DNA of 64,000 nucleotides from Cryomorphaceae bacterium (GTDB lineage Bacteria; Bacteroidota; Bacteroidia; Flavobacteriales; Flavobacteriaceae), in NCBI GenBank assembly GCA_018646865.1, contig JABGTW010000031.1, positions 2,106-66,105 of the forward strand. The letters run 5' to 3'. The notes beneath the pieces were generated by a model, which was not told where the DNA came from, made no database searches, and was given only the letters and a program-made list of their open reading frames with translations. Of this stretch, positions 13,323-37,176 are shown one piece after another. Made by a program: the position numbers and the translations under genes. The first letter of the stretch is position 1; the number at the start of each line of letters is the position of its first letter.

Positions 13323-14231
13323 TTATACTCTGTTTTTAGCTACCACAAAATGTTCAATTTTGAAAATATGATTTTCAGGAATGGTTCTTCCAATTGGAGT
13401 AAAATACTTAGAATTAAGATCAGCTAAGGTTTTATTTTCTATTAATGAAAACCTATTTTGAGAGAGTAAATCCTCAATTTCTTCAGCCGAGTATAATGAT
13501 ATCCATGGTTCGCCTACTTTCGCAGCTCCATAGGTTATTAATTTAGCTCGTTTTTCAGTGTTTGGATAACCCTTACCAAAACAGGCCTTTGGATCTTCTC
13601 TCAGAAGGCTATTTACATAAGACATAAAGAGTATTGCATTTGAATTTTGGGTTAAGACAGCCAGTTCATTTAAAGTTGAGTTAAGCGCTTCTCTTGTAAT
13701 ATACTGAGAAACTCCCTCAAGTGTGAATACGGTTGATTTACTTTCATCGAACCCTGCATTCAAAAGTTGTTCTTTGAGAGATTGGTGATTAAAATCAATA
13801 CTCACATAGGTCACGTTTTCTGCATTAGGTATCTCATCTGGAAGTTTAGAACGTTTTCTTTCTTGAACTTCAGGCTGATCAACTTCGAATATTTTTAATC
13901 CTGATGGTAGTTTGAGACGATGCGCTCTTGAGTCGTACCCAGCGCCTAGAATGACATATTGTTCTACCTTATCAGAGGTGCTTTTTTCAATTAGATCATC
14001 TATAAATCGTGTTCGAGAAATTAGAAGTTCATGAAATCCAGGAACGAACTTTTTACTCAACCAGACACTAAACTTATGCCCCATAAGTTTAATTATACCT
14101 GCACCAATTACAAACTTCTTAGCATAAGGATCATAAATAACACGTTTACCAGGTTTAGCAAGTGATTCAATCAATCGCTGTTTTGCAACCCCTTGAGCGG
14201 TCCCATCTTTTCTAAATATGGAGTTACTCAT
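13323..14231 (-). CDS. class I SAM-dependent methyltransferase (leucine carboxyl / O-methyltransferase-like family)
   Basis: 302 aa. VILGAGYDSR SAM-binding motif and EVDQPEV, typical of the LCM/TIGR00027-type methyltransferases. Confidence 0.75.
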   Translation of the reverse strand: MSNSIFRKDGTAQGVAKQRLIESLAKPGKRVIYDPYAKKFVIGAGIIKLMGHKFSVWLSKKFVPGFHELLISRTRFIDDLIEKSTSDKVEQYVILGAGYDSRAHRLKLPSGLKIFEVDQPEVQERKRSKLPDEIPNAENVTYVSIDFNHQSLKEQLLNAGFDESKSTVFTLEGVSQYITREALNSTLNELAVLTQNSNAILFMSYVNSLLREDPKACFGKGYPNTEKRAKLITYGAAKVGEPWISLYSAEEIEDLLSQNRFSLIENKTLADLNSKYFTPIGRTIPENHIFKIEHFVVAKNRV

Positions 14232-14297
14232 TGTGTATATTTATTAATTTCTTTATTGCTTTTATATAAACCATTTTCATTAAATTAATTAAAAAAA

Positions 14298-14975
14298 ATG
14301 AAAATCACTTTTTTAGGACATGCCTCATTAGAAATTAAAATTGATGAATTTAGTATTGTAGTTGATCCATTTATCTCTGGAAATCCTTTTGCTTCAGATG
14401 TTGATATTGATAGTTTAAAACCAGATTTTATTCTTATTACTCATGCTCATCAAGATCATATTTTAGATGTTGAAAAACTAGCTAAAGAAAATGACTCTAT
14501 TATTATTTCAAATTTTGAAATTGTCAATTATTTTCAAAACAAAGGATTAAAGGGTCATCCAATGAATCATGGTGGTAAATGGAATTTTGATTTTGGAGAA
14601 TTAAAGTATGTTAATGCAATTCATACTTCAACCTTTCCTGATGGAGAAAATGGAGGTCAGCCAGGAGGCTTTATAATCTCAGCAAATAATAAATCAATAT
14701 ACATTGCTGGAGATACTGCTTTAACTTATGATATGAAACTTATTCCACTTAAATACAATTTAGATCTTGCTGTTTTACCAATTGGAGATAATTTTACAAT
14801 GGGATATGAAGATGCAATTTTAGCTTCTGACTTTATCCAATGTGATAAAATACTAGGCTACCATTATGACACCTTCGGCTTGATTGAGATTAATGAAACT
14901 AATGCTATAGATAAGTTTAAAGAAAGAGGTAAGAATTTAATTCTATTAAAACCTTTGGAGTCGTTGGAAGTTTAA
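14298..14975 (+). CDS. metal-dependent hydrolase, MBL fold (UPF0173 family)
   Basis: 225 aa. THAHQDH metallo-beta-lactamase motif. Confidence 0.8.
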   Translation: MKITFLGHASLEIKIDEFSIVVDPFISGNPFASDVDIDSLKPDFILITHAHQDHILDVEKLAKENDSIIISNFEIVNYFQNKGLKGHPMNHGGKWNFDFGELKYVNAIHTSTFPDGENGGQPGGFIISANNKSIYIAGDTALTYDMKLIPLKYNLDLAVLPIGDNFTMGYEDAILASDFIQCDKILGYHYDTFGLIEINETNAIDKFKERGKNLILLKPLESLEV

Positions 14976-15679
14976 CTAATTAAACCAAGATCAATTTTAG
15001 ATAGATCATCTTTATTAATAATTTTAATTCTTTTTCCTTTAATGTCAATTAATTTTTTTTCCTTAAAAGACGACAGCATTCTAATACATCCTTCTTTAGA
15101 GGTACCAATCAAATCTCCTATTTCTTTTCTTTTTAAGTAAAGACTTATAAAGCCTTCTGAATCATTTCCAAATTCATTATTCAAATAAATTAAGACATGT
15201 GAAAGTCTTTGTTTAACAGACTTTTGAGCCAAGTTCACAAATTCATTATCTGATTTCTTTAGTTCATTAGATATATTTATAAGTAGTGCTTTCATGAAGC
15301 TTTTATTTTCTGAAAGTTCAAGAATCTTTTCTTTTGGAATAAAGCATAGCTCCATATCAGTTAATGCAATTGCATCTAAATTTGTGGATTCTTCAGAGAT
15401 TAATGATCTTTTACCTAGAAGTTCACCTTTACGAGCAATCTTGACAATTTGGCTATTTCCATTATCACTAATCTTTGACAATTTTGTACTACCACTTTTT
15501 ATGCAATAGACACCTTTTAACTTTTGTCCTTCAATGAATACTTGTTCTCCTTTTTTAAAACTAATTACTTGTTTAACATCAGATATTTTAGATAAATCTT
15601 CTTTATTAAGAGCATTAAAGGAATTTAATTCTCTTATAATACAGCTCTCGCACCTGATATCTAAATGATCTTTATTCAT
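14972..15679 (-). CDS. Crp/Fnr family transcriptional regulator
   Basis: 235 aa. cNMP-binding beta-roll (FKKGEQVFIEGQ, GELLG) and a C-terminal HTH (RKEIGDLIGTSKEGCIRMLSSF). Divergent from the nos operon. Confidence 0.85.
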   Translation of the reverse strand: MNKDHLDIRCESCIIRELNSFNALNKEDLSKISDVKQVISFKKGEQVFIEGQKLKGVYCIKSGSTKLSKISDNGNSQIVKIARKGELLGKRSLISEESTNLDAIALTDMELCFIPKEKILELSENKSFMKALLINISNELKKSDNEFVNLAQKSVKQRLSHVLIYLNNEFGNDSEGFISLYLKRKEIGDLIGTSKEGCIRMLSSFKEKKLIDIKGKRIKIINKDDLSKIDLGLIS

Positions 15680-15711
15680 CTAATAATAAAAGTAAACAAA
15701 ATTTTCAAAGT

Positions 15712-15725
15712 ATGATTTTTATCAT
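15712..15725. promoter_or_regulatory. FNR/CRP-type palindromic operator ATGAT-N4-ATCAT
   Basis: ATGATTTTTATCAT has perfect 5-bp arms containing the TGAT-N4-ATCA core of the FNR consensus TTGAT-N4-ATCAA. Its centre lies 29.5 nt upstream of the -7 box at 15748. Confidence 0.55.
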
Positions 15726-15747
15726 CTTTTAAATTAAAATCATACTT

Positions 15748-15755
15748 TAATTTTG
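15748..15755 (+). promoter_or_regulatory. Bacteroidota-type -7 promoter box (TAnnTTTG) for the nos operon
   Basis: TAATTTTG is an exact match to TAnnTTTG, 30 nt upstream of the cytochrome c ATG. Confidence 0.45.
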
Positions 15756-15785
15756 TCTTATAAAATTCATAAACAAATCTAAATT

Positions 15786-16292
15786 ATGATCAAATCTTTA
15801 AAATTATTAGTATGCTTATTGCTATTTGTTGGTTGTGGAAATAGCCAGTCAAATGAAAAGGAAAAGTTCTCATATGAAAGAACAAAAAAAGATAAAAAAG
15901 AAAATGTTGTTGTCAATCATGATAATCATGATATTAAAGCTTCTGTTATGGTAGACCTTGTAAATAAAGGTGTTGGACCCATTAAAGAAATAAGTTTTGA
16001 TAATGAAATAAATCCACAATTGGTAAGTTCTGGAGAGGAAATTTTTAGTAAGATGTGTTCTGCTTGTCATAAAGTAGGTAAAAAATTTATTGGTCCAAAG
16101 CCAAATAAAATTTTTGATAGAAGAACTCCAGAATGGGTAATGAATATGATATTAAATCCTGAAGAAATGGTCAATAATGATCCTATTGCAAAAAAATTAC
16201 TTGTTGAATTTAATGGTGCTCCAATGGCAAATCAAAATTTAACAGAGGATGAAGCTAGAGCAGTTGTTGAGTATTTCAGAACATTAAATTAA
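15786..16292 (+). CDS. mono-haem c-type cytochrome, lipoprotein (nos-associated)
   Basis: 168 aa. Lipobox LFVGC, haem motif CSACH, distal Met in GAPMANQ. First gene of the nos operon. Confidence 0.85.
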   Translation: MIKSLKLLVCLLLFVGCGNSQSNEKEKFSYERTKKDKKENVVVNHDNHDIKASVMVDLVNKGVGPIKEISFDNEINPQLVSSGEEIFSKMCSACHKVGKKFIGPKPNKIFDRRTPEWVMNMILNPEEMVNNDPIAKKLLVEFNGAPMANQNLTEDEARAVVEYFRTLN

Positions 16293-16298
16293 TTATAT

Positions 16299-16883
16299 AT
16301 GAAAGGTAAATCAATTTCTTTTATTCTAATTTTTTTCTTCACCGTAGCTGTATTAAGTATTTACTTAATGAGAACAAATGAAAAAATAAATAATGAAAAT
16401 AAAATATCAACTACAGATTCAGATAAAATAATTGCTGAAGGTGTTAATGGGCAAGCATTTATCGAAGATTCTTCGGAAATGAATACTGTACTCCATGTCG
16501 CTATTAATTCCAAAGATCATTCCACTTTAGTTCTAGCTGTTCAAGCTGCTGAACTTGAAAACTCTTTGGTAAATGCTGGCCCTTTAACTGTTTTTGCTCC
16601 AACTAATGAAGCTTTTGATGAACTTCCACCTAATACAGTTTCTAGTTTGTTAGAAAGAGAAAACATAGATAAACTAGCATTTATATTAAAGCACCATGTA
16701 ACACCTGGAAATTACTCTAAGGATTTCATTAAAAAATTTAAAAAACTTGGACAAGCAAGTAATGAAAATGTACCTGTTGAGGTTAAAGGAGATGACGTTT
16801 ATATAGGGGGAGCCAAAATTATTGCATCCGTTAAAGCCTCTAATGGCACAGTTCACATAGTAGATAAAGTTATTCTTCCATAA
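16299..16883 (+). CDS. fasciclin (FAS1) domain protein, membrane-anchored
   Basis: 194 aa with an N-terminal TM helix. FAS1 motifs LTVFAPTNEAF and NGTVHIVDKVILP. Confidence 0.85.
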   Translation: MKGKSISFILIFFFTVAVLSIYLMRTNEKINNENKISTTDSDKIIAEGVNGQAFIEDSSEMNTVLHVAINSKDHSTLVLAVQAAELENSLVNAGPLTVFAPTNEAFDELPPNTVSSLLERENIDKLAFILKHHVTPGNYSKDFIKKFKKLGQASNENVPVEVKGDDVYIGGAKIIASVKASNGTVHIVDKVILP

Positions 16884-17464
16884 TGAGTTATATAGGTGGT
16901 ATACTTCCAGATATTAATATTAACTCTGTAAATCATAAATCAGAGGAGGAAATTTTTAATTTTTCAAATAATAATATTAAAACTTTACTGTTCTGGTATC
17001 CTAAAGACTTTACATTTGTTTGTCCTACTGAAATTCATGCTTTTCAAGAAAAATTATCTGAGTTTATAAAAAGAGGTTACCGTGTTATAGGAGCCTCGTG
17101 TGATACAATACAGATTCATTTAGAATGGCTAAAAACTTCAAAAAAAAATGCAGGTATAGAGGGTATTACATTTCCCTTAATTTCAGATCCAAGAAGAACG
17201 TTATCTAAAAAACTCAAAATTTTGGGCAAAGATAATGTTACGTACCGAGCAACTTATCTTATTGACGAAAACAACTTAGTTTATTATGAATCTATTAATG
17301 AAATGTCAATAGGAAGAAATATAGATGAGCTTTTAAGAATCATAGATGCTAAAATTCATCATGATTTAAATGGAGAAGTGTGTCCAGCTAATTGGATTTT
17401 AGGCAAAAAAGCTCTTAAAGAATCAACAGAAAGTGTAAAAAAATATTTTTCAAACTTAAAGTAA
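16883..17464 (+). CDS. typical 2-Cys peroxiredoxin (AhpC/Prx1 type), no signal peptide
   Basis: 193 aa. Peroxidatic FVCPTE and resolving EVCPANW motifs. The start overlaps the fasciclin stop (TAATG). Confidence 0.9.
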   Translation: MSYIGGILPDININSVNHKSEEEIFNFSNNNIKTLLFWYPKDFTFVCPTEIHAFQEKLSEFIKRGYRVIGASCDTIQIHLEWLKTSKKNAGIEGITFPLISDPRRTLSKKLKILGKDNVTYRATYLIDENNLVYYESINEMSIGRNIDELLRIIDAKIHHDLNGEVCPANWILGKKALKESTESVKKYFSNLK

Positions 17465-17469
17465 ATCTT

Positions 17470-19419
17470 ATGAAACATTATATTAAAAAATCATTATTAA
17501 TTTTCTTATCGATGTTAGTTTTTTCGGCTTGTAATAATTTATCAATAAATGAAAGTACTCTACCATCAAGTGCCGCAGAAAAAGTGTATGTTCCACCAGG
17601 AGAACATGATGAATTTTATGCTTTTTTATCAGGCGGGTTTAGTGGTCAATTATCAGTTTATGGTTTGCCCTCTGGAAGATTATTTAAAATAATTCCTGTT
17701 TTTTCCGTCGATGCTGAAAAGGGATATGGATTCAATGAAGAAACTAAAGACTTGTTAAATACTTCATTTGGTAGAATACCATGGGGAGATTCTCATCATC
17801 CAGATATATCTCAAACAAATGGTAAGTTAGACGGAAGATGGATTTTTATTAATGAAAATAATACACCTAGAATCGGTAAAATTGATTTATCAGTTTTTGA
17901 GACAACAGAGACTATTGAAATTCCAAATACAGCTGGTAATCATAGCTCCTCATATGTTACAGAAAACACAGAATATGTTATCGCAGGAACCAGGTTTTCT
18001 ATTCCAGTTCCTCAAAGAGATATGCCAATTGATGAGTACAAAGGAAACTTCAAAGGTGTATTGTCATTTCTAGAAGTTGATTCAGAAGATGGTGAAATGG
18101 ACTTGTCTTTTCAAATAATGATGCCAGGATTTAATTATGATAAGGCACATCCTGGAAGAGGTAAATCTCATGGCTGGTTTTTCTATACAACTTATAATAC
18201 CGAGGAAGCAAATTCATTACTTGAAGTGAATGCATCTCAAAATGATAAAGATTTTATTGCGGCAGTTAATTGGAAAAAAGCAGAAGAATACATAAAGCAG
18301 GGTAAGTTTAAAACAATGAAGACTAATTATGCCCATAATAAATATGATGAATCTACTCATACAGCTAAGACAGAGTGGGTAAAAGAAGTTAAAGTACTTG
18401 ATCCTGCTGAATTACCAGGTCTTGTATATTTTTTACCAACTCCAAAATCTCCTCATGGTTGTGATGTAGATCCATCAGGAGAATATATTGTTGGAAGTGG
18501 TAAGCTATCATCAGATGTAACAGTTCACTCTTTTTCTAAAATGATAAATGCTATTGAAGAAGAAAATTTTTCTGGTGAAGCTTATGGAATTCCTATTTTA
18601 AATTTTGAAGCAGTTCATGCTGGAAGTGTTAAGCAGTCTGGTCTAGGCCCCTTACATACAGAATTTGATAACAAGGGTAATGCATATACCTCTTTCTTTA
18701 TTTCATCAGAGGTAGTTAAATGGAAATTAGGGACATGGGAGGTATTAGACAGAAAACCATCATTTTATTCAGTAGGACATCTAATGATTCCTGGCGGTAA
18801 TTCTGGTGAACCTTTTGGAAAATATGCTTTAGCAATGAATAAAATTACTAAAGATAGATATTTGCCAACAGGACCTGAGGTAACTCAGTCTGCACAGCTA
18901 TATGACATTACAGGAAGTAAAATGGAACTTTTGCTAGATTTTCCAACTGTAGGTGAACCTCATTATGCTGCTGGAATTCCTGCAGAACTTGTTAAGCCAA
19001 GATCAAAAAAAATATTTAAACTTGAAGATAATAAACATGAATATGCAACACTCTCCGAAAGAGACACTAAAGTAGTGAGAAACGGAAAAGAAGTTCATAT
19101 TTATATGACCACTATTAGAAGTCATTTTTCACCTGATAATATTGAGGGAATAAAGGTGGGAGACAAAGTTTATTTCCATATCACCAACCTCGAACAGGAC
19201 TATGACGTTCCCCATGGAGTTGCAATGATAGGAGCAAATACTTCGGAAGTTTTAATTATGCCCGGTCAAACTGAAACATTTATTTGGGAGCCAAAAAAAG
19301 TAGGTGTATGGCCTTTTTATTGTACTGACTTTTGTTCTGCACTTCATCAAGAAATGCAAGGATATGTTAGGGTTTCACCTAAAAATTCAAGTATAAAACT
19401 TTCTTGGTCACTAGATTAA
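17470..19419 (+). CDS. nosZ: nitrous-oxide reductase, Sec-dependent (clade II)
   Basis: 649 aa. Lipoprotein-type Sec signal (LSMLVFSAC) with no twin-arginine. C-terminal CuA site DVPHGV...CTDFCSALHQEM. Followed by nosL/D/F/Y. Confidence 0.95.
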   Translation: MKHYIKKSLLIFLSMLVFSACNNLSINESTLPSSAAEKVYVPPGEHDEFYAFLSGGFSGQLSVYGLPSGRLFKIIPVFSVDAEKGYGFNEETKDLLNTSFGRIPWGDSHHPDISQTNGKLDGRWIFINENNTPRIGKIDLSVFETTETIEIPNTAGNHSSSYVTENTEYVIAGTRFSIPVPQRDMPIDEYKGNFKGVLSFLEVDSEDGEMDLSFQIMMPGFNYDKAHPGRGKSHGWFFYTTYNTEEANSLLEVNASQNDKDFIAAVNWKKAEEYIKQGKFKTMKTNYAHNKYDESTHTAKTEWVKEVKVLDPAELPGLVYFLPTPKSPHGCDVDPSGEYIVGSGKLSSDVTVHSFSKMINAIEEENFSGEAYGIPILNFEAVHAGSVKQSGLGPLHTEFDNKGNAYTSFFISSEVVKWKLGTWEVLDRKPSFYSVGHLMIPGGNSGEPFGKYALAMNKITKDRYLPTGPEVTQSAQLYDITGSKMELLLDFPTVGEPHYAAGIPAELVKPRSKKIFKLEDNKHEYATLSERDTKVVRNGKEVHIYMTTIRSHFSPDNIEGIKVGDKVYFHITNLEQDYDVPHGVAMIGANTSEVLIMPGQTETFIWEPKKVGVWPFYCTDFCSALHQEMQGYVRVSPKNSSIKLSWSLD

Positions 19420-19435
19420 TCTAAAAAATATTAAA

Positions 19436-20041
19436 ATGAGAGCTTTTTTTCATAATGCTAGAGTAATTATGTTTATTGCTGCAGTTTTACCGCTAGCTGT
19501 TTTTATATTTCCTATCTGGAATGTAACACTTGAGGCACCGCAATACCCAACACCCTTAGGTATAAATATTCATATAAATGATTTTTCTGATGTAAATCCA
19601 CATGATATAAAAAACATAAATCTTTTGAATCATTATATTGGAATGAAGTATATTCCAGATGCGATTCCAGAATTTAAAATTTTTCCATGGGGAATAATCT
19701 TGACATCAATTTTAGGTATTGTCATTTCTCTAAAATTTGAAAATAAATACTTTTTATACTGGTTTATTTTAATGTGCTTATTGAGTGCAGCAGGTCTGTT
19801 TGATTTCTACCTGTGGGAACATGATTATGGATATAACCTAGACTCAAAGGCTATACTTAAATTTACAAATGCAGATGGAACAGCTTTGGCATATCAACCT
19901 CCTGTGTTTGGAACAAAACAAGTATTAAATTTTACAGTTCATTCATATCCAAGATTAGGAGCATATTTTTTAGGATTTGGAATTATTCTATCACTTTACG
20001 CATTTAAACTTTCTAAAAATCTAAAATTAGATGTTAAATAA
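19436..20041 (+). CDS. nos-cluster integral membrane protein (tentatively NosB-like)
   Basis: 201 aa with about 4 TM helices. Its position directly after nosZ matches that of the clade-II-specific membrane gene. Identity is by position only. Confidence 0.55.
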   Translation: MRAFFHNARVIMFIAAVLPLAVFIFPIWNVTLEAPQYPTPLGINIHINDFSDVNPHDIKNINLLNHYIGMKYIPDAIPEFKIFPWGIILTSILGIVISLKFENKYFLYWFILMCLLSAAGLFDFYLWEHDYGYNLDSKAILKFTNADGTALAYQPPVFGTKQVLNFTVHSYPRLGAYFLGFGIILSLYAFKLSKNLKLDVK

Positions 20042-20486
20042 ACTCCATTTAATTGGTTTAATTTTTTTATTTATCTCGTGTAACTTTTCACCAGAACCTA
20101 TAAATTATGGGGTAGATGAATGTAATTATTGTAAAATGATTATAGTTGATAACGCTCATTCTTCGGAGATTTTTACAAATAAAGGTAAATCTTATAAGTT
20201 TGATTCAATAGAATGTATGGTAAATTACTTACATGAAAATCATGATACTGATTATGTTCAAAAACCTGATAAAACTTTAATATTAGTCAGTAATTTTAAT
20301 TCGCCGGGGAGTATGCTCAATGTTACAAATGCAAAATTCCTCATAAGTGAAAAAATATCAAGTCCTATGGGAGCAAATTTATCAGCTTTCACTTCAATTA
20401 AAGAAATTTTAGAAATAGACAATAATGCTCAAATATTAGACTGGAATACTCTAGTTGAGAACTTTAGAAATTTAATTCAAAATTAA
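20031..20486 (+). CDS. nosL: copper chaperone lipoprotein NosL
   Basis: 151 aa. Lipobox LFISC and the CNYCKM motif characteristic of NosL. Confidence 0.8.
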   Translation: MLNKLHLIGLIFLFISCNFSPEPINYGVDECNYCKMIIVDNAHSSEIFTNKGKSYKFDSIECMVNYLHENHDTDYVQKPDKTLILVSNFNSPGSMLNVTNAKFLISEKISSPMGANLSAFTSIKEILEIDNNAQILDWNTLVENFRNLIQN

Positions 20487-20490
20487 ATTA

Positions 20491-21744
20491 ATGGTACTTA
20501 ATGAAGTTATAATATCGAAGTCTAAATTATTATTTCTAATACTTTTATGGAGCTGTTTTATCAACTCGCAAACTATTGATGTTTGTAAGACTTGTAATTT
20601 CAAAACAATTAAGAAAGCAATTAAGTTTTCAAGTATAAATGATACAATATTTATACAAAAAGGAACATATAAAGAGTCTGATATTGAAATTAATAAACCA
20701 CTAATTATTATTGGAAATGACCGTCCAATAATAGATGGTGAATATGAAGGAGAGATTTTTAATATAAAATCAGACGATGTTATAATTAAAGGACTTAAAA
20801 TAGTCAATGTTGGTAAAAGCTACATAAAAGATTATGCTGCAATCAGAGTAATAAAAGCTAAAAACTTTAATATTTCTGATAATATTTTTGATAATCTTTT
20901 TTTTGGAATTTATATTGAAAAATCAAGTCATGGAGTCATTTATAATAATAAAATTTATGGTAATTCAAAAGAAGAGTATAGTTCAGGAAATGGAATACAA
21001 TTGTGGTACTCAAACGACATCTTGGTTTCAAATAATTATGTTACTGGAGTAAGAGATGGAATTTATCTTGAGTTTTCAGATAACTGTAAGATTATTTCAA
21101 ATACTAGTCATAATAATTTAAGGTATGGATTACACTTTATGTTTTCAGATAATGACATATATGAGAAAAATAGTTTCGTGGATAATGGAGCGGGTGTTGC
21201 TGTTATGTTTTCAAAACAAATTAACATGAATGATAATTTATTTAAAGATAATTGGGGTACAGCATCTTATGGTTTACTGCTTAAAGAAATAAATGATTCA
21301 AATATCACAAATAATATTTTTGATAAAAATACTACAGCAGTAAATATAGAGGGATCCAATAGATTAATTTTTAAGCATAATAACTTCACTAATAATGGTT
21401 GGGCAATTAAGGTAAGAGGTGCGTGTTACGCTAATAATTTTACTTATAATAATTTTATTTTTAATTCGTTTGATCTTTCTTATAATAGTTCAGTTAACGA
21501 TAATATTTTTGAAAATAATTATTGGAGTAGCTATAATGGATATGACCTAGATAATGATGGATATGGAGATGTTCCATACAGACCAGTCAAATTATTTACT
21601 TATATAGTTAATACTGTACCCGAAACTGTAGTTCTTCTAAGAGGTTTATTTGTACATATAATTAATTTTTCCGAAAAAGTTTCTCCTGTGTTTACTCCAA
21701 AAAAATTACTAGATCAAAATCCTCTAATGAATATTATAAGATGA
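20491..21744 (+). CDS. nosD: periplasmic beta-helix protein NosD
   Basis: 417 aa with a signal peptide. Many parallel beta-helix repeats (NNxIxGN-type). Overlaps nosF. Confidence 0.9.
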   Translation: MVLNEVIISKSKLLFLILLWSCFINSQTIDVCKTCNFKTIKKAIKFSSINDTIFIQKGTYKESDIEINKPLIIIGNDRPIIDGEYEGEIFNIKSDDVIIKGLKIVNVGKSYIKDYAAIRVIKAKNFNISDNIFDNLFFGIYIEKSSHGVIYNNKIYGNSKEEYSSGNGIQLWYSNDILVSNNYVTGVRDGIYLEFSDNCKIISNTSHNNLRYGLHFMFSDNDIYEKNSFVDNGAGVAVMFSKQINMNDNLFKDNWGTASYGLLLKEINDSNITNNIFDKNTTAVNIEGSNRLIFKHNNFTNNGWAIKVRGACYANNFTYNNFIFNSFDLSYNSSVNDNIFENNYWSSYNGYDLDNDGYGDVPYRPVKLFTYIVNTVPETVVLLRGLFVHIINFSEKVSPVFTPKKLLDQNPLMNIIR

Positions 21745-22475
21745 TACGTATAGAAAACTTACATAAAAATTTTAAGGAAAACATAGTCCTAAATGATATA
21801 GATTTAAAAGTTAAACCTAATAATGTTACTACAATAGTTGGACCTAATGGATCAGGTAAAACAACAATCATTAAATGTATTCTGGGAATGCTAATCCCTA
21901 AAAGAGGGAAAATTTATATAGATAATATAAATATTTCCAAGTCTCACACATATAGAAACTATATTACTTATTTACCTCAAGTTGAAAGCTTTCCTCCAAA
22001 TCTAAAGGTTCATGAACTTCTTGACATGATAAAAAATTTAAGAAATAATGACATTAGTTATCTTTCATTAGTCAATCATTTTAATTTAAAACAATATTTA
22101 CAACATAGAACTTCAACTTTATCTAAAGGAACTAGACAAAAAATCAATCTAGTAATTACTTTTATGTTTGATTGCCCAATTATTATTTTAGACGAGCCTA
22201 CTGCTGGTCTTGATCCAATTTCAGTAATTAAATTAAAAGAACTAATAGATATTGAAAAGAAAAAAGGTAAAACAATTCTTATTACATCGCATATCATGAG
22301 TTTTATTGATGAGGTTTCTAGTGAGATAATTTTGCTATCTGAGGGTCAGATTTTTTATAATGGATCAATTAAAAAATTGAAAAAAAATATTGTAAAGAAC
22401 AGGAATAATAAAAAATCTTATTTAACTGATTTAGAATATGCATTAACAAAAATAATTGATGAAAAAAATGTTTAA
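21741..22475 (+). CDS. nosF: ABC transporter ATP-binding protein NosF
   Basis: 244 aa. Walker A GPNGSGKTT, signature LSKGTRQK, Walker B IIILDEP. Confidence 0.85.
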   Translation: MIRIENLHKNFKENIVLNDIDLKVKPNNVTTIVGPNGSGKTTIIKCILGMLIPKRGKIYIDNINISKSHTYRNYITYLPQVESFPPNLKVHELLDMIKNLRNNDISYLSLVNHFNLKQYLQHRTSTLSKGTRQKINLVITFMFDCPIIILDEPTAGLDPISVIKLKELIDIEKKKGKTILITSHIMSFIDEVSSEIILLSEGQIFYNGSIKKLKKNIVKNRNNKKSYLTDLEYALTKIIDEKNV

Positions 22476-23250
22476 AATTCTAAAATATTGTTTATCTGAT
22501 TTGATGAGAAGTCATTGGATACTTTTTTATTTTTTGTTTTATCTTCTTATTGGATTTGGATTATTACTCATAAATACAAGTTTTTCAAATACAATTATTA
22601 CTTTATTAAATATTATAATTGTTTTATCTCCTTTAATTTCATCTGTATTTGGCATAACATATTTTTATAATTCTAAAAACTTCACTCAACTATTATTAGC
22701 TCAACCAATTGATAGAAAAAAGATTTTTATTGCACAATACCTGGGAGTATCATTTTCTTTATCATTGAGTTTGATTTTAGGTTTATCAATCCCTTTTATC
22801 CTTTTCGGTATTTTAAGTTCACAAAATTTATATGAGTTTATATTATTACTGGGAATATCTTCAGTTTTGACATTTATATTCTCTTGTATATCATTCTACA
22901 TAGGTATTTTAAACAACAATAAACTAAGGGGGTTTGGATTAACTGTTGTTGTATGGCTAATTATGGCAGTTGTTTATGATGGATTAATAATGATTTTGTT
23001 AATGATATTTAGAGAATATCCCTTAACGAATCCTTCATTAATTGCTATGCTACTTAACCCAATAGATTTAGCAAGAACAGTATTGATAATTAATCTAGAT
23101 TTATCTGCACTTTTGGGATATACAGGAGCAAGTTTTAAATTATTTTTTGGAACATTTTATGGAATTATTATTTGCACAATATCCCTTTTAATTTGGTTAT
23201 TCATCCCTTTGACACTTTTAATTAGAAGAATTGAGAATAAAGATTTCTAA
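22456..23250 (+). CDS. nosY: ABC-2 type permease NosY
   Basis: 264 aa with about 6 TM helices. Overlaps nosF by 20 nt. Confidence 0.8.
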   Translation: MMKKMFKILKYCLSDLMRSHWILFYFLFYLLIGFGLLLINTSFSNTIITLLNIIIVLSPLISSVFGITYFYNSKNFTQLLLAQPIDRKKIFIAQYLGVSFSLSLSLILGLSIPFILFGILSSQNLYEFILLLGISSVLTFIFSCISFYIGILNNNKLRGFGLTVVVWLIMAVVYDGLIMILLMIFREYPLTNPSLIAMLLNPIDLARTVLIINLDLSALLGYTGASFKLFFGTFYGIIICTISLLIWLFIPLTLLIRRIENKDF

Positions 23251-23534
23251 ATGGCAAGATTTAATATAATTACAATAATATTATAAACTAGGCTAGTTAT
23301 AATTAAATTGAAAATTATTTTATAAGATTGAACTGATAATACAGCAGCATTATAAATACTACATATAAATACTGCAATTCCTATTTGAATCCAATTAATT
23401 AAATTATATCCATTCATCATTATCACCATAACAGCAATTGATCCCACTAGAGTTGAAATCACAATACCTATAGAAGAATTAAATCTATAATTATCTCTGA
23501 AAGCTAACTTGACACTATTATATTTATTAATCAT
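23247..23534 (-). CDS. small 3-TM membrane protein (unknown function)
   Basis: 95 aa from the ATG at 23534 (a GTG lies at 23537). Three hydrophobic helices. Its 3' end overlaps the nosY stop by 4 nt. Its start overlaps the stop of the upstream Cys-rich small ORF. Confidence 0.55.
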   Translation of the reverse strand: MINKYNSVKLAFRDNYRFNSSIGIVISTLVGSIAVMVIMMNGYNLINWIQIGIAVFICSIYNAAVLSVQSYKIIFNLIITSLVYNIIVIILNLAI

Positions 23535-23646
23535 CACAATTTTTATTATTATGTTTTTTAACTGAAGAACATGTTTTGTGTTTCTTATCTAAAGATTTGT
23601 CTTTGCATTTTTTGCCTGAAGAACAGGACTTACATTTCTTATTCAT
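23527..23646 (-). CDS. candidate 39-aa Cys/Lys-rich small protein (not in the ORF track)
   Basis: My translation is MNKKCKSCSSGKKCKDKSLDKKHKTCSSVKKHNNKNCDD*. It has 5 Cys and 13 Lys, with an internal repeat K[ST]CSS[GV]KK. It overlaps the downstream ATG by 8 nt. It is preceded by a promoter module shared with the nos operon. Confidence 0.4.
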   Translation of the reverse strand: MNKKCKSCSSGKKCKDKSLDKKHKTCSSVKKHNNKNCDD

Positions 23647-23667
23647 TTTTATTGACTTTATAATGAA

Positions 23668-23675
23668 TAAAATTA
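23668..23675 (-). promoter_or_regulatory. -7-like promoter box TAATTTTA (minus strand)
   Basis: Differs from the nos -7 box TAATTTTG only at the last base. It has the same 18-nt spacer after the operator module, and lies 21 nt upstream of the small-ORF ATG. Confidence 0.4.
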
Positions 23676-23697
23676 TGCTTAAAGACTAAGATGAAAG

Positions 23698-23711
23698 ATG
23701 ATAATAATCAT
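23698..23711. promoter_or_regulatory. second FNR/CRP-type operator ATGAT-N4-ATCAT
   Basis: ATGATAATAATCAT, sitting inside the 16-bp palindrome GATGATAATAATCATC. On the minus strand the 18-mer ATGATTATTATCATCTTT is 17/18 identical to the nos promoter copy. Confidence 0.5.
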
Positions 23712-23748
23712 CATATCTTAAAAAAAGGTATATTAAAAAAAACAAGTT

Positions 23749-24051
23749 ATGAGAATTATATATTTTATATTATGCGTTTTAGGAATTGCGTTACCTTATT
23801 ACAATTTGATCAATTTTCTTAAAGTTAATAATTGGTCAATGGATGGTTTTTTCAGTCTTTTATATGAAAATTATGCTGTATCAATGTTGTCAATGGATTT
23901 AACTGTAGCTGCTAGCTCTTTTTTAATTTTCTTAATTTATAAAAACAGAAAATCTCCTTTGAAAATTTTTAGATATTTAGTTCCAATGTTTTTAGTAGGA
24001 TTTTCTTTAGCATTGCCTTTATATCTTTATGACAATCATGATTCTAACTAG
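23749..24051 (+). CDS. DUF2834-like small membrane protein
   Basis: 100 aa with 3 TM helices. The pattern LPYYNLINFL...SLALPLYLY resembles DUF2834 family members as I remember them. Confidence 0.5.
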   Translation: MRIIYFILCVLGIALPYYNLINFLKVNNWSMDGFFSLLYENYAVSMLSMDLTVAASSFLIFLIYKNRKSPLKIFRYLVPMFLVGFSLALPLYLYDNHDSN

Positions 24052-24232
24052 ATAGTTTTCTTGTATTTATCATTACACATACTCCTGCATTAACAAAAAT
24101 TAGTGATAAAGTTCCTATCAAGAAAAAATCTAAACCTTGAGACTTTCTAATTATTGCTTCTCCTAACAAACATAATCCTGAACTAAAAGTTAATATTCCT
24201 AAAGTTCCTATAATTGTATACTTATTAATCAT
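24044..24232 (-). CDS. small 2-TM membrane protein (hypothetical)
   Basis: 62 aa with two hydrophobic helices. Its 3' end overlaps the convergent gene by 8 nt. Confidence 0.4.
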   Translation of the reverse strand: MINKYTIIGTLGILTFSSGLCLLGEAIIRKSQGLDFFLIGTLSLIFVNAGVCVMINTRKLSS

Positions 24233-24273
24233 CTTTTATTACATTTAATTCTAAATTTAATAAATTCAATCTT

Positions 24274-25533
24274 ATGACAAGTGAAGTATGGTTTGTAGTA
24301 ATTATATGCCTTGTAATTTTTAATTTTCTATTCTCAAATATTTTAGGTTATCTGAATCATAAAAACTGGAAAGATGAAATTCCATTAGAATTAAAGAATT
24401 TCTATGACATAGAAAAATATAAAAAAGCAAAGCTATATGCAATAAGTAAAAATAAAATTGGATTACTTTCTTCTACCACAAGTTTTTTATTTGTTAGTTC
24501 ACTTTTAGTTTTTGATGGTTATGGCTTTCTTGATCAATTAGTTAATTCTGATAGTTTGAATTTATTTTTACCTTTTGAAATTAATTCAAATTTTGCTAAA
24601 TCAGGAATGTTTTTTCTAATTCTATTTGTTTTAAATTCTTTAATATCAATCCCCTTTTCATATTATAACACTTTTGTTATTGAGGAAAAATATGGATTTA
24701 ACAAGACTTCTAAAGCTACATTCTTTCTTGATATAGTTAAATCTTCAATACTGTCAATTTTAATTGGCGGAATTCTTCTGTTAGCCGCGCTATACATATA
24801 TGATAATATCAATGATGGATTTTGGCTATGGTTATGGATAGGGCTTTCATCACTAATGATTGTCTTAAATATGTTCTACGCAGATTTAATTGTACCAATT
24901 TTTAATAAACTAACTCCTTTAAATGATGGTGAATTAAGACAAAAAATTGAAAAGTATTCAAAAAAAGTTGGGTATCTCTTAAAGAATATATATGTAATAG
25001 ATGGATCAAAAAGATCAACAAAAGCAAATGCTTTCTTTAGTGGTTTAGGCCCTAGAAAAACAATTGCACTTTATGATACTTTAATTGAAAAGCATACAGA
25101 AAATGAATTAGTAGCTGTTTTGGCTCATGAGGTTGGGCATTTTAAGAAAAAACATATCTTTTCAGGTTTAATAATGTCAGTTATTCAAATAGGGGTAATG
25201 ACTTTTTTCTTTGAATTATGTTTGAAACTACCAGAAATTTCAATGGCATTAGGAGGATCAGATAGTAGTTTTCACCTTGGTTTAATTGGGTTTACTATAA
25301 TTTTCTCACCAATATCAATGATTTCCAGCATATGGATGAATTTTATAAGTAGAAAAAATGAATTTGAAGCGGACGCTTATGCTAAAGAAACATTTAATGG
25401 AGAGGATTTATCATTGGCATTAAAAAAATTATCAGTAGACAGTTTATCAAATATTTACCCACACCCATTATATGTATTTTTTCACTATTCTCATCCTCCA
25501 TTAATTGAGAGGTTAAGAGCTTTAAATAAATAA
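24274..25533 (+). CDS. M48 family metallopeptidase (Ste24/CAAX protease-like)
   Basis: 419 aa, multi-TM. Zinc motif AHEVGHFKKKH and a downstream EFEAD. Confidence 0.85.
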   Translation: MTSEVWFVVIICLVIFNFLFSNILGYLNHKNWKDEIPLELKNFYDIEKYKKAKLYAISKNKIGLLSSTTSFLFVSSLLVFDGYGFLDQLVNSDSLNLFLPFEINSNFAKSGMFFLILFVLNSLISIPFSYYNTFVIEEKYGFNKTSKATFFLDIVKSSILSILIGGILLLAALYIYDNINDGFWLWLWIGLSSLMIVLNMFYADLIVPIFNKLTPLNDGELRQKIEKYSKKVGYLLKNIYVIDGSKRSTKANAFFSGLGPRKTIALYDTLIEKHTENELVAVLAHEVGHFKKKHIFSGLIMSVIQIGVMTFFFELCLKLPEISMALGGSDSSFHLGLIGFTIIFSPISMISSIWMNFISRKNEFEADAYAKETFNGEDLSLALKKLSVDSLSNIYPHPLYVFFHYSHPPLIERLRALNK

Positions 25534-34517: not shown

Positions 34518-36127
34518 TAATTAGAGGTGATAAAGCCAGACCCTTTAACAAATCTTCCAGGAAATTTATCAGTATGTTCACCTTTAGAAATCACTTGAAC
34601 TCCATTAACAAAAACTTGTTCAACTCCAACAGCAAATTGAAGAGGTTTTTCAAAAGTTGCTTTGTCATCAATAAGATCAGGATCAAAAACCACAATATCA
34701 GCATAATAACCAGGTTTTAAATAACCTCTATTATTAATGCCAAGATTATCAGCCGGAAAGCCAGAAAGTCTTCTTATAGCATCTTCCATTGAAATTAATT
34801 TTTCATCTCTAACGTATTTACCAAGAACTCTAACAAAGCTTCCAAATGCTCTAGGATGAGTAATAAAATCTTTTGAAATATCAGAATAAGATCCAGCGTC
34901 AGAATCAAATGAAACCCAAGGCAACATTATTTTTTTTCGAATATTTTCTTCAGACATACTAAAGTAAATACATTGAATTCTACTTTCATCTTCAATTATT
35001 AGATTTACTATTGCTTCTTCAGGAGATTCATTTCTAATTTTTGCTGCTTCGGCAATTGTCATACCTCTATATTTTTTAGACATAGATGCTTTATTAAATC
35101 CAACCATTAAAATATCTTCTGGAGGCTGTTCAGAAAGTTCTTTTCTAATATCTTTAAATAATCTTTCCCTAACATCTGGCTTCTTCATTCTGTTTATCCA
35201 TGCCTGTCGTCCACCTTCTTGAACCCAAGTAGGTATTACTCCAGTTAAACCAGTAGAAGATGCAGGATAAGTATACATGTCTGCAGTTATTTTTAATCCT
35301 TTTTTCCTAGCATTTTCAACTTTCTGAATAACTGAATCTAGAAGATGCCAATTGGCTTTCCTAGATGATTTTAAATGATAAATCTGTGATGGTATATTGG
35401 CTCTTTCTGCAATTTCAATTAATTCATCAACTGCTTGAAGGACCCTAGAATCTTCATTTCTCATATGAGATATATACTTACCTCCATAAAAAGATGCAAC
35501 TTTTGATAATTCAACTAACTCATCTGTATCAGCATAATCAGCAGGTGCATAGATCAGAGAGGATCCAATTCCAATTGCACCTTGCATCATTGCAAGTTTA
35601 ACAATATTTCTCATTGATTCCATCTCATCACTAGTAGCTTTTCTATTAGCATATCCAATTTCCTGAATCCTTACTGTAGTTGCTCCTAAATAAGATGCTA
35701 TATTAGTTGAGACACCACTCGCTTCTAGTTTTTCCATTGCTTCACCAAAGGATACATAATTATTGTTTTCTACTGAACCATATGGTCCTGGTGAAGTTCC
35801 CTCACCAAAAACTTCGAGAGTTACTCCTTGTTTAAGATCACTAAGCGATCTCCCATCTTGCATTAAAGTACTATAACCCCAGCTGAGCATATTTATAAAT
35901 CCAGGAGAGACTATTTTACCAGAAGCATCTATAGTTTTATTAGCTATAAAATTCCCTTTTTTCCCTACATAAAAAATAGTATCATTTTTTATTGCAACAT
36001 TGCCAACGTATCCGTTCATTCCAGAACCATCATGAATAGTTCCACCCTTAATTAAAACATCTATATTTAAAGGGTCATTATCACAGGACAATACAAATAT
36101 TACAAAAGCAAAAAGTAATTTTTTCAT
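34517..36127 (-). CDS. N-acyl-D-amino-acid deacylase (D-aminoacylase) family amidohydrolase, lipoprotein
   Basis: 536 aa. Lipobox VLSC. The N-terminal IKGGTIHDGSG and C-terminal GYYADIVVFDP are typical of the D-aminoacylase family. Confidence 0.8.
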   Translation of the reverse strand: MKKLLFAFVIFVLSCDNDPLNIDVLIKGGTIHDGSGMNGYVGNVAIKNDTIFYVGKKGNFIANKTIDASGKIVSPGFINMLSWGYSTLMQDGRSLSDLKQGVTLEVFGEGTSPGPYGSVENNNYVSFGEAMEKLEASGVSTNIASYLGATTVRIQEIGYANRKATSDEMESMRNIVKLAMMQGAIGIGSSLIYAPADYADTDELVELSKVASFYGGKYISHMRNEDSRVLQAVDELIEIAERANIPSQIYHLKSSRKANWHLLDSVIQKVENARKKGLKITADMYTYPASSTGLTGVIPTWVQEGGRQAWINRMKKPDVRERLFKDIRKELSEQPPEDILMVGFNKASMSKKYRGMTIAEAAKIRNESPEEAIVNLIIEDESRIQCIYFSMSEENIRKKIMLPWVSFDSDAGSYSDISKDFITHPRAFGSFVRVLGKYVRDEKLISMEDAIRRLSGFPADNLGINNRGYLKPGYYADIVVFDPDLIDDKATFEKPLQFAVGVEQVFVNGVQVISKGEHTDKFPGRFVKGSGFITSN

Positions 36128-37176
36128 TTTTTTATGATTCCTTCTAATTTATCAAAAATTTCAGTATTATCATAAATACCTGTGAAAATGGATGAATATT
36201 TGCCAAAACTAAATACTGGTACCATTGTAGCTGTATGGTTACCTGAAACATATTTATTTATTACTTTAGAATTTTCTAGATTACCATTTACAATAGCAAC
36301 GCCACCCGTTTCATGGTCTGCAGTTACTACAACTAATGTGTTTTTGTCTTTTTCTGCATAGTCTAAAACATTTTCAATTGTTTTATCAAATTCAATAAAC
36401 TCACTAATCATATGTTTTTGATCTTTATCATGAGACCCCCAATCAATTTGAGAACCTTCTACTAAAAGGAAAAAAGGTTTATCTAAATCAACTAGTTTTT
36501 GAATTGTAATCTCAACTGCTTTATCTAATGAAGGCTCTCTATTTTTAAATTTTTCAATAGGTTCTTCATAAGCAGTTAAAAAACCAATTTTTTTTGAGTT
36601 TGACTTTTGATATTCATCAAGATTTTTAGGGAAATAATATTTGTTCATTTCTTTTATAAGATTCCTTTTGTCAGATCTATTTATAAAATATTTCTCACCC
36701 CCACCAATAAAGAAATCAACTTTGCTTTTTGATAATTGATTAGCAATCTTGTCATATTCATATCTATTCTCTACATGAGCATAATAAGATGCTGGAGAGG
36801 CATGAACTATACTAGATGTAACAACAATAGCAGTTGAGTAACCTAATTTAATACACATTTCCAAAATAGTTTCAACCGAATTATCATTAGAATCAAGACC
36901 AATAACTTTATTATTTGTTTTTACTCCTGAAGACATAGCTGTTGCACTTGCGGCAGAATCAGTTACTAAATCATCAAATGAATGAGTCTTAGATAAACCA
37001 ATATATTCAGACCTTTCAAGAGAAGTATAATTGTTATTTGAATACATTCCTGATGAGATGGCTGAAAGCCCCATACCATCACCAATCATCATTACAATAT
37101 TTGGAGGCTTAGAATCTTGCCCAAAGATATTTACTGTTGAACATAAAATTAATATAAGGATAAGCTTTTGAGACAT
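36124..37176 (-). CDS. alkaline phosphatase (PhoA family)
   Basis: 350 aa with a signal peptide. GDGMG and the active-site TDSAASATA. Confidence 0.9.
   Translation of the reverse strand: MSQKLILILILCSTVNIFGQDSKPPNIVMMIGDGMGLSAISSGMYSNNNYTSLERSEYIGLSKTHSFDDLVTDSAASATAMSSGVKTNNKVIGLDSNDNSVETILEMCIKLGYSTAIVVTSSIVHASPASYYAHVENRYEYDKIANQLSKSKVDFFIGGGEKYFINRSDKRNLIKEMNKYYFPKNLDEYQKSNSKKIGFLTAYEEPIEKFKNREPSLDKAVEITIQKLVDLDKPFFLLVEGSQIDWGSHDKDQKHMISEFIEFDKTIENVLDYAEKDKNTLVVVTADHETGGVAIVNGNLENSKVINKYVSGNHTATMVPVFSFGKYSSIFTGIYDNTEIFDKLEGIIKK

Follow-up and report, generated by a model that had tools for sequence, protein, structure and literature searches.

In a 64,000-nucleotide (nt) stretch from a Cryomorphaceae bacterium (contig JABGTW010000031.1; hereafter the window), a 39-amino-acid (aa), Cys- and Lys-rich small open reading frame (ORF) lies between an FNR-type promoter and the gene for a 95-aa membrane protein, next to the nos operon for nitrous oxide (N2O) reduction. 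This small ORF represents a narrowly distributed, unnamed small-ORF family of uncertain function that is attached to an unnamed membrane-protein family, and it is a lineage-specific addition, a stretch of about 115 nt placed between the promoter and the older gene. Sequence and gene-context comparisons appear to link the small ORF with the Crp/FNR regulator and with a response to low oxygen/nitric oxide (NO) rather than with copper loading of NosZ. Our preferred interpretation, held tentatively, is that it encodes a lineage-specific, translationally coupled, cytoplasmic, thiolate-rich peptide of a low-oxygen/N-oxide regulon.

Anatomy of the small ORF and its overlap with the membrane-protein gene

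Translation of the reverse strand from 23646 to 23527 yields MNKKCKSCSSGKKCKDKSLDKKHKTCSSVKKHNNKNCDD, with 5 Cys, 13 Lys and 2 His, in agreement with the first-pass annotation of this DNA (Table 1). The cysteines are spaced C5-x2-C8-x5-C14-x11-C26-x10-C37. The TAA stop codon at 23529-23527 lies inside the 8-nt sequence ATGATTAA, which also contains the ATG of the 95-aa ORF at 23534, confirming the stop/start overlap described in that annotation. The internal duplication that it had reported is also present, with the 10-mer TGTTCTTCAG occurring twice in the small ORF, 54 nt apart; the 64-kb window holds three copies in all, against 0.24 expected. The G+C content of the window is 30%, and Cys makes up 0.8% of the residues of its long ORFs. 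Ten ORFs of 30-60 aa with at least four Cys were found in the window, eight of them inside long genes, and the only intergenic ones are the small ORF and its own antisense. The peptide has no hydrophobic stretch or signal sequence, and its AlphaFold model is uninformative, showing no confident fold (predicted local distance difference test, pLDDT, 49).

None of the sources examined gives the small ORF a name. In this sense it is unannotated, as had been claimed, but some pipelines do call it as a gene (P0173-P0178; L021-L024, L027) while others miss it (L001-L004). The acidic C-terminus that had been pointed out exists in the window peptide and is not conserved among lineages, and neither are the exact Cys positions. 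Six variants of the peptide gave no Pfam match at E up to 10, the small ORF has no NCBIfam match, and a profile search against the PDB returned chance-level hits only, the best being ribosomal protein L37e (E = 2.5). At the RNA level, an Rfam search of the region at a permissive threshold detected snoRNA noise only, the leader folds no better than its shuffles (z = +0.35), and no terminator-like site was found in 23000-24300.

Table 1. Features of the window and of related loci. Positions are those of the window unless a locus (L number) is given.
Feature	Position or loci	Strand	Remarks
39-aa Cys/Lys-rich small ORF, group A form	23527..23646	-	First AUG after the promoter boxes
Overlap ATGATTAA, small-ORF stop / 95-aa ORF start	23527..23534	-	8 nt
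Internal repeat TGTTCTTCAG, copy 1	23616..23625	-	Encodes C-S-S
Internal repeat TGTTCTTCAG, copy 2	23562..23571	-	In frame, 18 codons downstream
95-aa membrane protein	23247..23534	-	Short N-terminal helix and three transmembrane (TM) helices; unnamed Flavobacteriaceae family
nosY	22456..23250	+	Closes the nos operon; its stop and that of the 95-aa ORF (ends 23247) have 4 nt in common
TAATTTTA box	23668..23675	-	22 nt downstream of the FNR-type box
FNR/Crp-type box ATGATTATTATCAT (ATGAT-N4-ATCAT)	23698..23711	-	Centre about 58 nt upstream of the small-ORF ATG
Second box copy ATGATTTTTATCAT	15712..15725	+	Divergent region between the Crp/FNR gene and the first nos-operon gene
Crp/FNR-family regulator (cNMP_binding + HTH_Crp_2)	14972..15679	-	Diverges from the nos operon
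Group A	Window, L001-3, L010, L015, L027		39-aa small ORF
Group B	L004, L021-24		42-aa small ORF, MSIK[T/M]DDKSNYCSSC[G/E]KCKFKCLDKTNK[I/K]CYTVKVNNTKFDD
Group C	L011-17		34-35-aa small ORF, MDNIFDKKESRCTKDIVDKEKSIKTKC[C/S]CINKKCK
Truncated-haemoglobin genes 3' of the membrane-protein family gene	L005 6289-6678; L006 6298-6708; L008 6293-6688; L018 6283-6672; L019 5189-5575		No stored Pfam annotation

Conservation of the small ORF in three lineages

The carriers of the small ORF are uncultured marine flavobacteria of three lineages, groups A to C. In each of them the small ORF begins with the first AUG past the ATGAT-N4-ATCAT and TAATTTTA boxes, and it always overlaps the membrane-protein start, through ATGATTAA (group A), ATGACTAA (group B) or ATGCAAATAG (group C, where the frame relation is different). 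The conserved stop/start overlap that anatomically marks a translationally coupled upstream ORF is present in all three groups. Frame conservation in related genomes had been put forward as a check on the small ORF, and the frame is open and AUG-initiated in every lineage, and lengths differ by whole codons. Start codons were exchanged without being lost: in L004, ACG stands at the group A start and an ATG lies four codons upstream, and L021-24 carry both starts. These patterns favour the translational coupling that had been suggested for the pair, as the small ORF looks selected and is probably translated and coupled to the gene of the three-TM protein.

Comparison of the two products revealed different degrees of divergence. 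The 95-aa protein is 81% identical between groups A and B and 52% between groups A and C, while the small peptide is only about 50% identical between A and B and 23-31% identical to group C, from which it is almost unalignable. At least four Cys are found in 11 of 11 distinct peptide variants, and each lineage has one polymorphic Cys (C26Y in A, C15Y in B and C28S in C).

We also considered, and rejected, a fusion of the two ORFs by programmed frameshifting, since the frame relation differs between groups A/B and C and the N-terminal extensions of long family members are Cys-free. In L011, at about 4760-4870, and likewise in L016, an insertion of about 110 nt separates the group C small ORF from the FNR-type promoter. 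Its ends are inverted (ATATATCACCATTTTG / CAAAATGGTGATATAT), a 23-nt direct duplication, ATAAAATATCATGGATAATATAT, flanks it, and it looks like a miniature inverted-repeat transposable element (MITE). The duplication recreates an intact small-ORF start beside the membrane-protein gene, and the first copy opens a different ORF of 28 codons. Two short metagenome contigs are identical to group A (L025) and group C (L026) up to an A-run within the 3' portion of the small ORF. Their divergent ends (L025 from 2319 and L026 from about 1641, each to the contig end) have no BLAST match among the loci compared, and they either reflect chimeric assembly or represent strains in which other sequence has taken the place of the membrane-protein gene and nos.

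Chance and selection

To estimate how often such an ORF would arise by chance, we used dinucleotide-preserving shuffles of each lineage's own leader and counted those whose first ATG opens at least 30 codons and reaches the downstream start. Shuffling yielded such an ORF in 2.9% (group A), 2.4-2.6% (group B) and 1.1% (group C) of cases, and one with at least four Cys in at most 0.2% per lineage (0.02% for the window leader). Groups A/B and group C come close to being independent trials because they are almost unalignable.

Between groups A and B, the small ORF shows a proportion of synonymous differences (pS) of 0.59 and of non-synonymous differences (pN) of 0.21-0.24, with an omega of about 0.2, similar to the neighbouring 95-aa gene and the regulator gene. 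The comparison of non-synonymous with synonymous rates (dN/dS) that had been proposed as a check gave conflicting signals, neutral-like at short range versus omega of about 0.2 at long range, and was not used as decisive. From the sequence comparisons as a whole we conclude that the small ORF as such, open, AUG-initiated, overlapping and Cys-rich, is probably under selection, and that the exact amino-acid sequence of the peptide appears weakly constrained and fast-evolving.

A promoter module common to the small ORF and the nos operon

TGAT-N4-ATCA boxes occur at only two intergenic positions of the window, at 15713 in the nos promoter and at 23699 upstream of the small ORF. The other four matches fall within ORFs: 36419 and 36608, checked directly, in 36124-37176, and, by coordinates, 13786 in the ORF at 13323-14231 and 1687 in that at 732-2192. 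Both intergenic boxes lie within a 25-nt module common to the nos promoter and the small-ORF promoter, which substantiates the duplicated FNR-type promoter module noted in the first-pass annotation. The TAATTTTA box also has the same spacing as its counterpart in the nos promoter (TAATTTTG). When six promoters, those of groups A to C and that of the window's nos operon, are aligned, ATGAT-N4-ATCAT and the TAATTTT 22 nt further on are invariant. At the sequence level, the unit carries the mark of an FNR/Crp regulon, a promoter-proximal TGAT-N4-ATCA palindrome that is kept in relatives. The TAATTTTA box resembles the Bacteroidetes -7 element, TAnnTTTG, and the transcript would start a few bases past this box, roughly 15 nt before the small-ORF ATG.

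The Crp/FNR regulator of the window has an N-terminal C-x2-C only (C10, C13), together with C59 and C112, and lacks the full FNR-type Cys cluster. In group B (L004 10001-11032; L021-L024), the regulator gene 3' of the pair may be co-transcribed with it from the regulator's own box-dependent promoter, which would amount to autoregulation. The Usp gene of group B diverges from the same FNR-type box as the pair.

The 95-aa membrane protein and its wider family

The AlphaFold model of the 95-aa protein (mean pLDDT 88) consists of a short N-terminal helix followed by three long helices, in line with the three-helix membrane protein proposed before. A Foldseek search of this model against the PDB retrieved generic helical bundles only, with E values above 2, and no Pfam or NCBIfam model covers the protein or its family. 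The label DUF1634, carried by one family member in UniRef (P0119), was not reproduced by Pfam and was discarded. Exhaustive HMMER and profile searches defined a family of 92-97-aa proteins, all labelled hypothetical, in Gelidibacter, Christiangramia, Maribacter, Ulvibacter, Aureibaculum, Kordia and many metagenomes. Two close relatives were found in a set of 5.8 billion proteins, and genome and metagenome scans with a profile of four close sequences revealed a third group at 52-54% identity. The carrier is abundant in ocean data, with the exact partner protein of the window present on at least 317 contigs, including Tara surface-ocean data.

Analysis of six distinct contexts of the wider family indicated a different arrangement. 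An FNR-type box is centred 60-63 nt upstream of the family ATG, with 7-10 of 10 positions matching in five of the six contexts (matches of at least 9/10 are expected 0.06 times per 260 nt). Also in five of six, a gene of about 130 codons lies directly 3' of the family gene and encodes a group III truncated haemoglobin; the L006 protein, which was the one tested, matches Campylobacter Ctb (PDB 2ig3, E = 1e-10), and there is a weak Bac_globin match. ResB/CcsA is encoded in two contexts, as a fusion after the haemoglobin in L006 and L008. A Crp/FNR-family gene adjoins or is near the family gene in four contexts, Usp is also among the neighbours, and in Maribacter the family gene ends an Rrf2-cupin-ScdA/RIC-hemerythrin cluster. 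None of the six contexts is next to nos. In Campylobacter jejuni, NssR is a Crp/FNR-family regulator. Expression of ctb in this organism is induced by nitrosative stress through NssR (PMC5577044). The FNR-type box, the Crp/FNR neighbours, the truncated haemoglobin, the RIC-hemerythrin context and the nitrosative induction of ctb together make the family look like a component of a low-oxygen/N-oxide response. The box-to-ATG distance is 58 nt for the small ORF and 60-63 nt for the family gene, which means that the small ORF fills the family gene's usual start position; the 95-aa start of the window lineage is displaced by about 115 nt from that place.

The nos locus and the extent of linkage

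The nos operon of the window lies on the plus strand and is of the clade II flavobacterial type, encoding cytochrome c, a fasciclin-domain protein, a peroxiredoxin, NosZ (649 aa), a 201-aa membrane protein, NosL, NosD, NosF and NosY. The 201-aa protein contains LNHYIGM, the motif for recognising NosB in flavobacteria (PMC9697520). The same study lists only nosZ, nosB, nosL, nosD, nosF and nosY in its flavobacterial inventory (PMC9697520). Neither the small ORF nor the 95-aa ORF matches a described nos product in Pfam or NCBIfam, and the view that the small ORF is not a described nos gene was correct.

Overlap of the 95-aa ORF stop with the nosY stop, also described before, was verified, 4 nt being common to both. 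The pair is arranged stop-to-stop with nosY in groups A and C, although NosY is only 61% and the membrane protein only 52% identical between them. The group B pair is flanked by a Usp gene and, 33 nt downstream on the same strand, by a regulator gene that encodes an ortholog of the window regulator (77% identity). No nos genes stand between the pair and this regulator, an arrangement that equals that of the window minus the nos operon. As groups A and C are both nos-adjacent, the simplest course for group B would be a loss of nos here that left the pair untouched. Linkage to nos, which had been set as a further check, is partial: the pair adjoins nosY in groups A and C and has no nos at its locus in group B.

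The block formed by the Crp/FNR gene, the nos operon, the 95-aa ORF and the small ORF (window 13323-24051) has varying neighbours among the window, L001, L013 and L015/L027. Its flanks carry MBL hydrolase and DUF2834 genes in the window, GDPD and DUF2834 genes in L001, and an MBL gene and another gene in L015/L027. An LCM-type methyltransferase gene stands beside the small ORF in group C and at the far side of the block in the window (13323-14231). These arrangements suggest that the block moves or recombines as an island.

Proposed role and alternative explanations

In the interpretation that we tentatively prefer, the Crp/FNR regulator would activate a bicistronic mRNA from a promoter of the nos-operon design, and the first AUG of this mRNA would open the 39-codon ORF. 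Ribosomes ending at the small-ORF TAA would then sit on the AUG of the 95-aa ORF and could re-initiate there. The predicted product is a polycationic, intrinsically unstructured, thiolate-rich peptide, presumably cytoplasmic because it lacks a hydrophobic stretch or signal sequence. Its four or more Cys might ligate one metal or Fe-S centre, or might act as a sacrificial or redox thiol pool, and the peptide may work at the inner membrane face beside its N-in three-TM partner. The unit would belong to the low-oxygen/N-oxide regulon of the adjacent regulator, outside the periplasmic machinery for copper insertion into NosZ; in most Flavobacteriaceae, the same membrane-protein family would be co-transcribed with a group III truncated haemoglobin instead. 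The CuA and CuZ centres are assembled outside the cytoplasmic membrane by NosL and NosDFY. Since assembly takes place there, and since the pair survives without nos in group B, direct copper delivery to NosZ is unlikely. A bolder version has a new minimal (34-42 aa) cytoplasmic Cys4 metal or Fe-S peptide that arose in a 5' leader of abundant, streamlined marine Flavobacteriales and forms, with its three-TM partner, an O2/NO-labile or Cu-buffering module needed for, or protecting, N2O respiration where oxic and anoxic ocean meet; we regard it as a long shot.

Several observations weigh against a functional peptide. Anatomy, conservation, promoter sharing and gene contexts were observed directly, whereas translation, coupling, cytoplasmic location and the ligand or thiol chemistry are deduced from sequence. 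The peptide alignment has a single invariant Cys column, with Cys positions poorly conserved, and a profile search based on a six-sequence alignment of the peptides found groups A, B and C only. Six distinct contexts of the wider family have no room for the small ORF or no trace of it. The Lys-richness may reflect an A-rich leader in a genome of 30% G+C. Between groups A and B, the third-position excess is not significant (7, 9 and 14 of 36 for the three codon positions), and transition bias could inflate the omega estimate. Within lineages, 1 synonymous change stands against about 11 non-synonymous changes, which fits neutrality and, under an omega of 0.2, has a P of about 0.004 by a binomial estimate.

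The main competitor, which we judge rather unlikely yet serious, is a purely regulatory upstream ORF, whose translation delivers ribosomes to a poorly placed 95-aa AUG or adjusts their supply, for instance through pausing on Cys or Lys codons, and whose peptide has no function. It would explain why the stop/start overlap, kept in two frame relations, is the best-conserved property, why the peptide turns over so much faster than its partner, why the within-lineage changes are nearly all non-synonymous and include Cys to Tyr, and why the small ORF lies about 60 nt from the box, at the place that the start of the 95-aa gene takes in other genomes. A spacer, however, need not keep 4-5 Cys in all 11 variants against a proteome Cys content of 0.8%, and shuffled leaders seldom offer such an ORF (at most 0.2%); there is no terminator or alternative RNA structure for attenuation, and the downstream AUG of group C stands in an A-rich context that appears favourable without coupling. 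If the region were an untranslated 5' leader, with an ORF open by chance in A-rich, T-poor sequence, the neutral-looking short-range substitutions and the omission of the small ORF by gene callers in several assemblies would be expected, and the reverse frames are nearly stop-free too, from strand composition. We nevertheless hold this to be improbable, for three lineages, two of them almost unalignable, all have an open, AUG-initiated and overlapping ORF (shuffles at 1-3% each), its indels are whole codons, and in group B (L004, L021-24) the start codon has been replaced rather than lost.

Similarly improbable, and perhaps slightly more so, is the first-pass proposal of a dedicated nos accessory pair, in which the peptide, acting with the three-TM protein, would buffer Cu(I) or pass it on for the maturation of NosZ. 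The stop-to-stop arrangement with nosY despite the divergence of NosY, a promoter module that is the same as that of the nos operon, and the persistence of the Crp-nos-pair block between different flanks, as if inherited as a unit, all speak for it. Against it, group B has the pair and the regulator without nos between them, the wider family is not nos-linked in the sampled contexts, a peptide without an export signal is at odds with extracytoplasmic CuA/CuZ assembly, and the flavobacterial inventory of PMC9697520 holds no such gene; the idea of a copper chaperone for NosZ is accordingly not upheld. Far less credible still are two further possibilities, that the pair encodes a toxin or bacteriocin of the cationic peptide type and its small immunity protein in the membrane, or that a small gene lies on the other strand. 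A small cationic peptide beside a membrane protein of about 95 aa does resemble bacteriocin/immunity pairs, but the peptide has neither a hydrophobic or amphipathic segment nor a leader sequence, the unit is driven by an FNR box, and the membrane-protein family mostly occurs without the peptide and with a globin. The opposite strand does hold an antisense hydrophobic ORF of 30 aa at 23571-23663, which was rejected as a candidate because in group B it has no ATG and contains an internal stop.

Comparison with known systems

Among known systems, the small peptide would work most like small metallothionein-type or minimal Cys4 peptides, and the small ORF most like coupled upstream ORFs. Metallothionein-like peptides include the SmtA/BmtA family and mycobacterial MymT, an initially unannotated small ORF that binds Cu(I). 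Like them, the small peptide is tiny, Cys-rich, Lys/Ser-rich, fast-evolving and easily left unannotated, would have no fold without metal, and keeps the number of its Cys better than their positions. It differs in having 4-5 Cys (about 13%) versus roughly 15-30%, in its FNR-type box with no metal-responsive regulator near, and in its overlap with a membrane-protein gene; no metal-responsive regulator or transporter was seen within the locus. Assignment to the bacterial metallothioneins (Metallothio_Pro / SmtA-BmtA) was rejected, as there is no profile match and only 4-5 Cys versus the roughly nine Cys plus His that, in that family, build a Zn4 cluster around a zinc-finger-like fold.

Minimal Cys4 sites are known from desulforedoxin (36 aa, Fe(Cys)4), from the ferredoxin motif C-x2-C-x2-C-x3-C and from the N-terminal C-x2-C-x5-C of Escherichia coli FNR. 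Group B has the ferredoxin spacing and group A the FNR spacing, the size is near that of desulforedoxin, and every variant has at least four Cys. However, the spacing differs per lineage (C...C-C-C-x4-C in group C), C15Y breaks that of group B, and no Pro follows the fourth Cys, which leaves the Cys spacings suggestive but inconsistent. A 4Fe-4S ferredoxin-type motif was rejected because it occurs in group B only, is absent from A and C, is broken by C15Y in P0181 and has no Pfam match. A desulforedoxin/rubredoxin Fe(Cys)4 site, which has two Cys pairs (C-x2-C plus C-x2-C or C-C), was likewise dismissed, with no Pfam or PDB match and with Cys pairs that are not at conserved positions.

The small ORF resembles coupled upstream ORFs and leader peptides in being short, in starting at the first AUG and in a stop that overlaps the next start, an overlap that outlasts the sequence. 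It departs from them in having no terminator/antiterminator structure and in keeping across lineages a Cys composition that a spacer does not need. A leader-peptide attenuator was rejected on the lack of a terminator site, the fold z-score of +0.35 and the overlap of the ORF with the next start. Described nos accessory genes comprise nosR, X, L, D, F and Y and, in clade II, nosB, G, H, C1 and C2. The pair is like these in adjoining nosY and sharing its promoter design with the operon, and unlike them in that neither ORF matches a nos family and the pair persists without nos at the group B locus. To our knowledge, no membrane-protein partner of Ctb has been described. Elsewhere, a Crp/FNR-family gene and a Ctb-like globin gene enclose the family gene, which follows the same type of box, an arrangement reminiscent of NssR-Ctb units (PMC5577044), whereas the window lineage has no globin at the locus and carries the small ORF upstream instead.

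Uncultured marine Flavobacteriales with clade II nosZ are candidate N2O sinks, and a small protein under the same regulation, overlooked in several annotations, could contribute in an unrecognised way to running or protecting N2O reduction at low oxygen. Were the minimal Cys4 peptide real, it would add to clade II nos islands a component not seen before; were the small ORF only a coupling device, the interest would be modest and would mainly concern translation control in the Shine-Dalgarno-poor Bacteroidota. More broadly, the locus offers a clear case, for comparative work, of a promoter and an older gene between which a lineage-specific small ORF was placed. The FNR-type box, the Crp/FNR neighbour and the truncated-haemoglobin partner also provide a first functional handle on an unnamed membrane-protein family of the Flavobacteriaceae.

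Other features of the nos block

The nos operon and the small-ORF unit share their stops (23247-23250), and no terminator-like hairpin separates them. Transcription from each FNR-box promoter would thus run into the opposing unit, which makes antisense interference possible. The genes preceding nosZ at window 15786-17464, encoding cytochrome c, the fasciclin-domain protein and a 1-Cys-type peroxiredoxin, are all kept in L001 and L027, and the fasciclin and peroxiredoxin genes are outside the standard nos gene list. The minus strand also carries, at 24044-24232, a 62-aa ORF that overlaps the DUF2834 gene at the latter's end. Gene calls for L001, L002 and L025 include this ORF, which matches no family; within it, a 42-nt stretch is directly repeated (24077-24118 and 24170-24211) at 74% identity.

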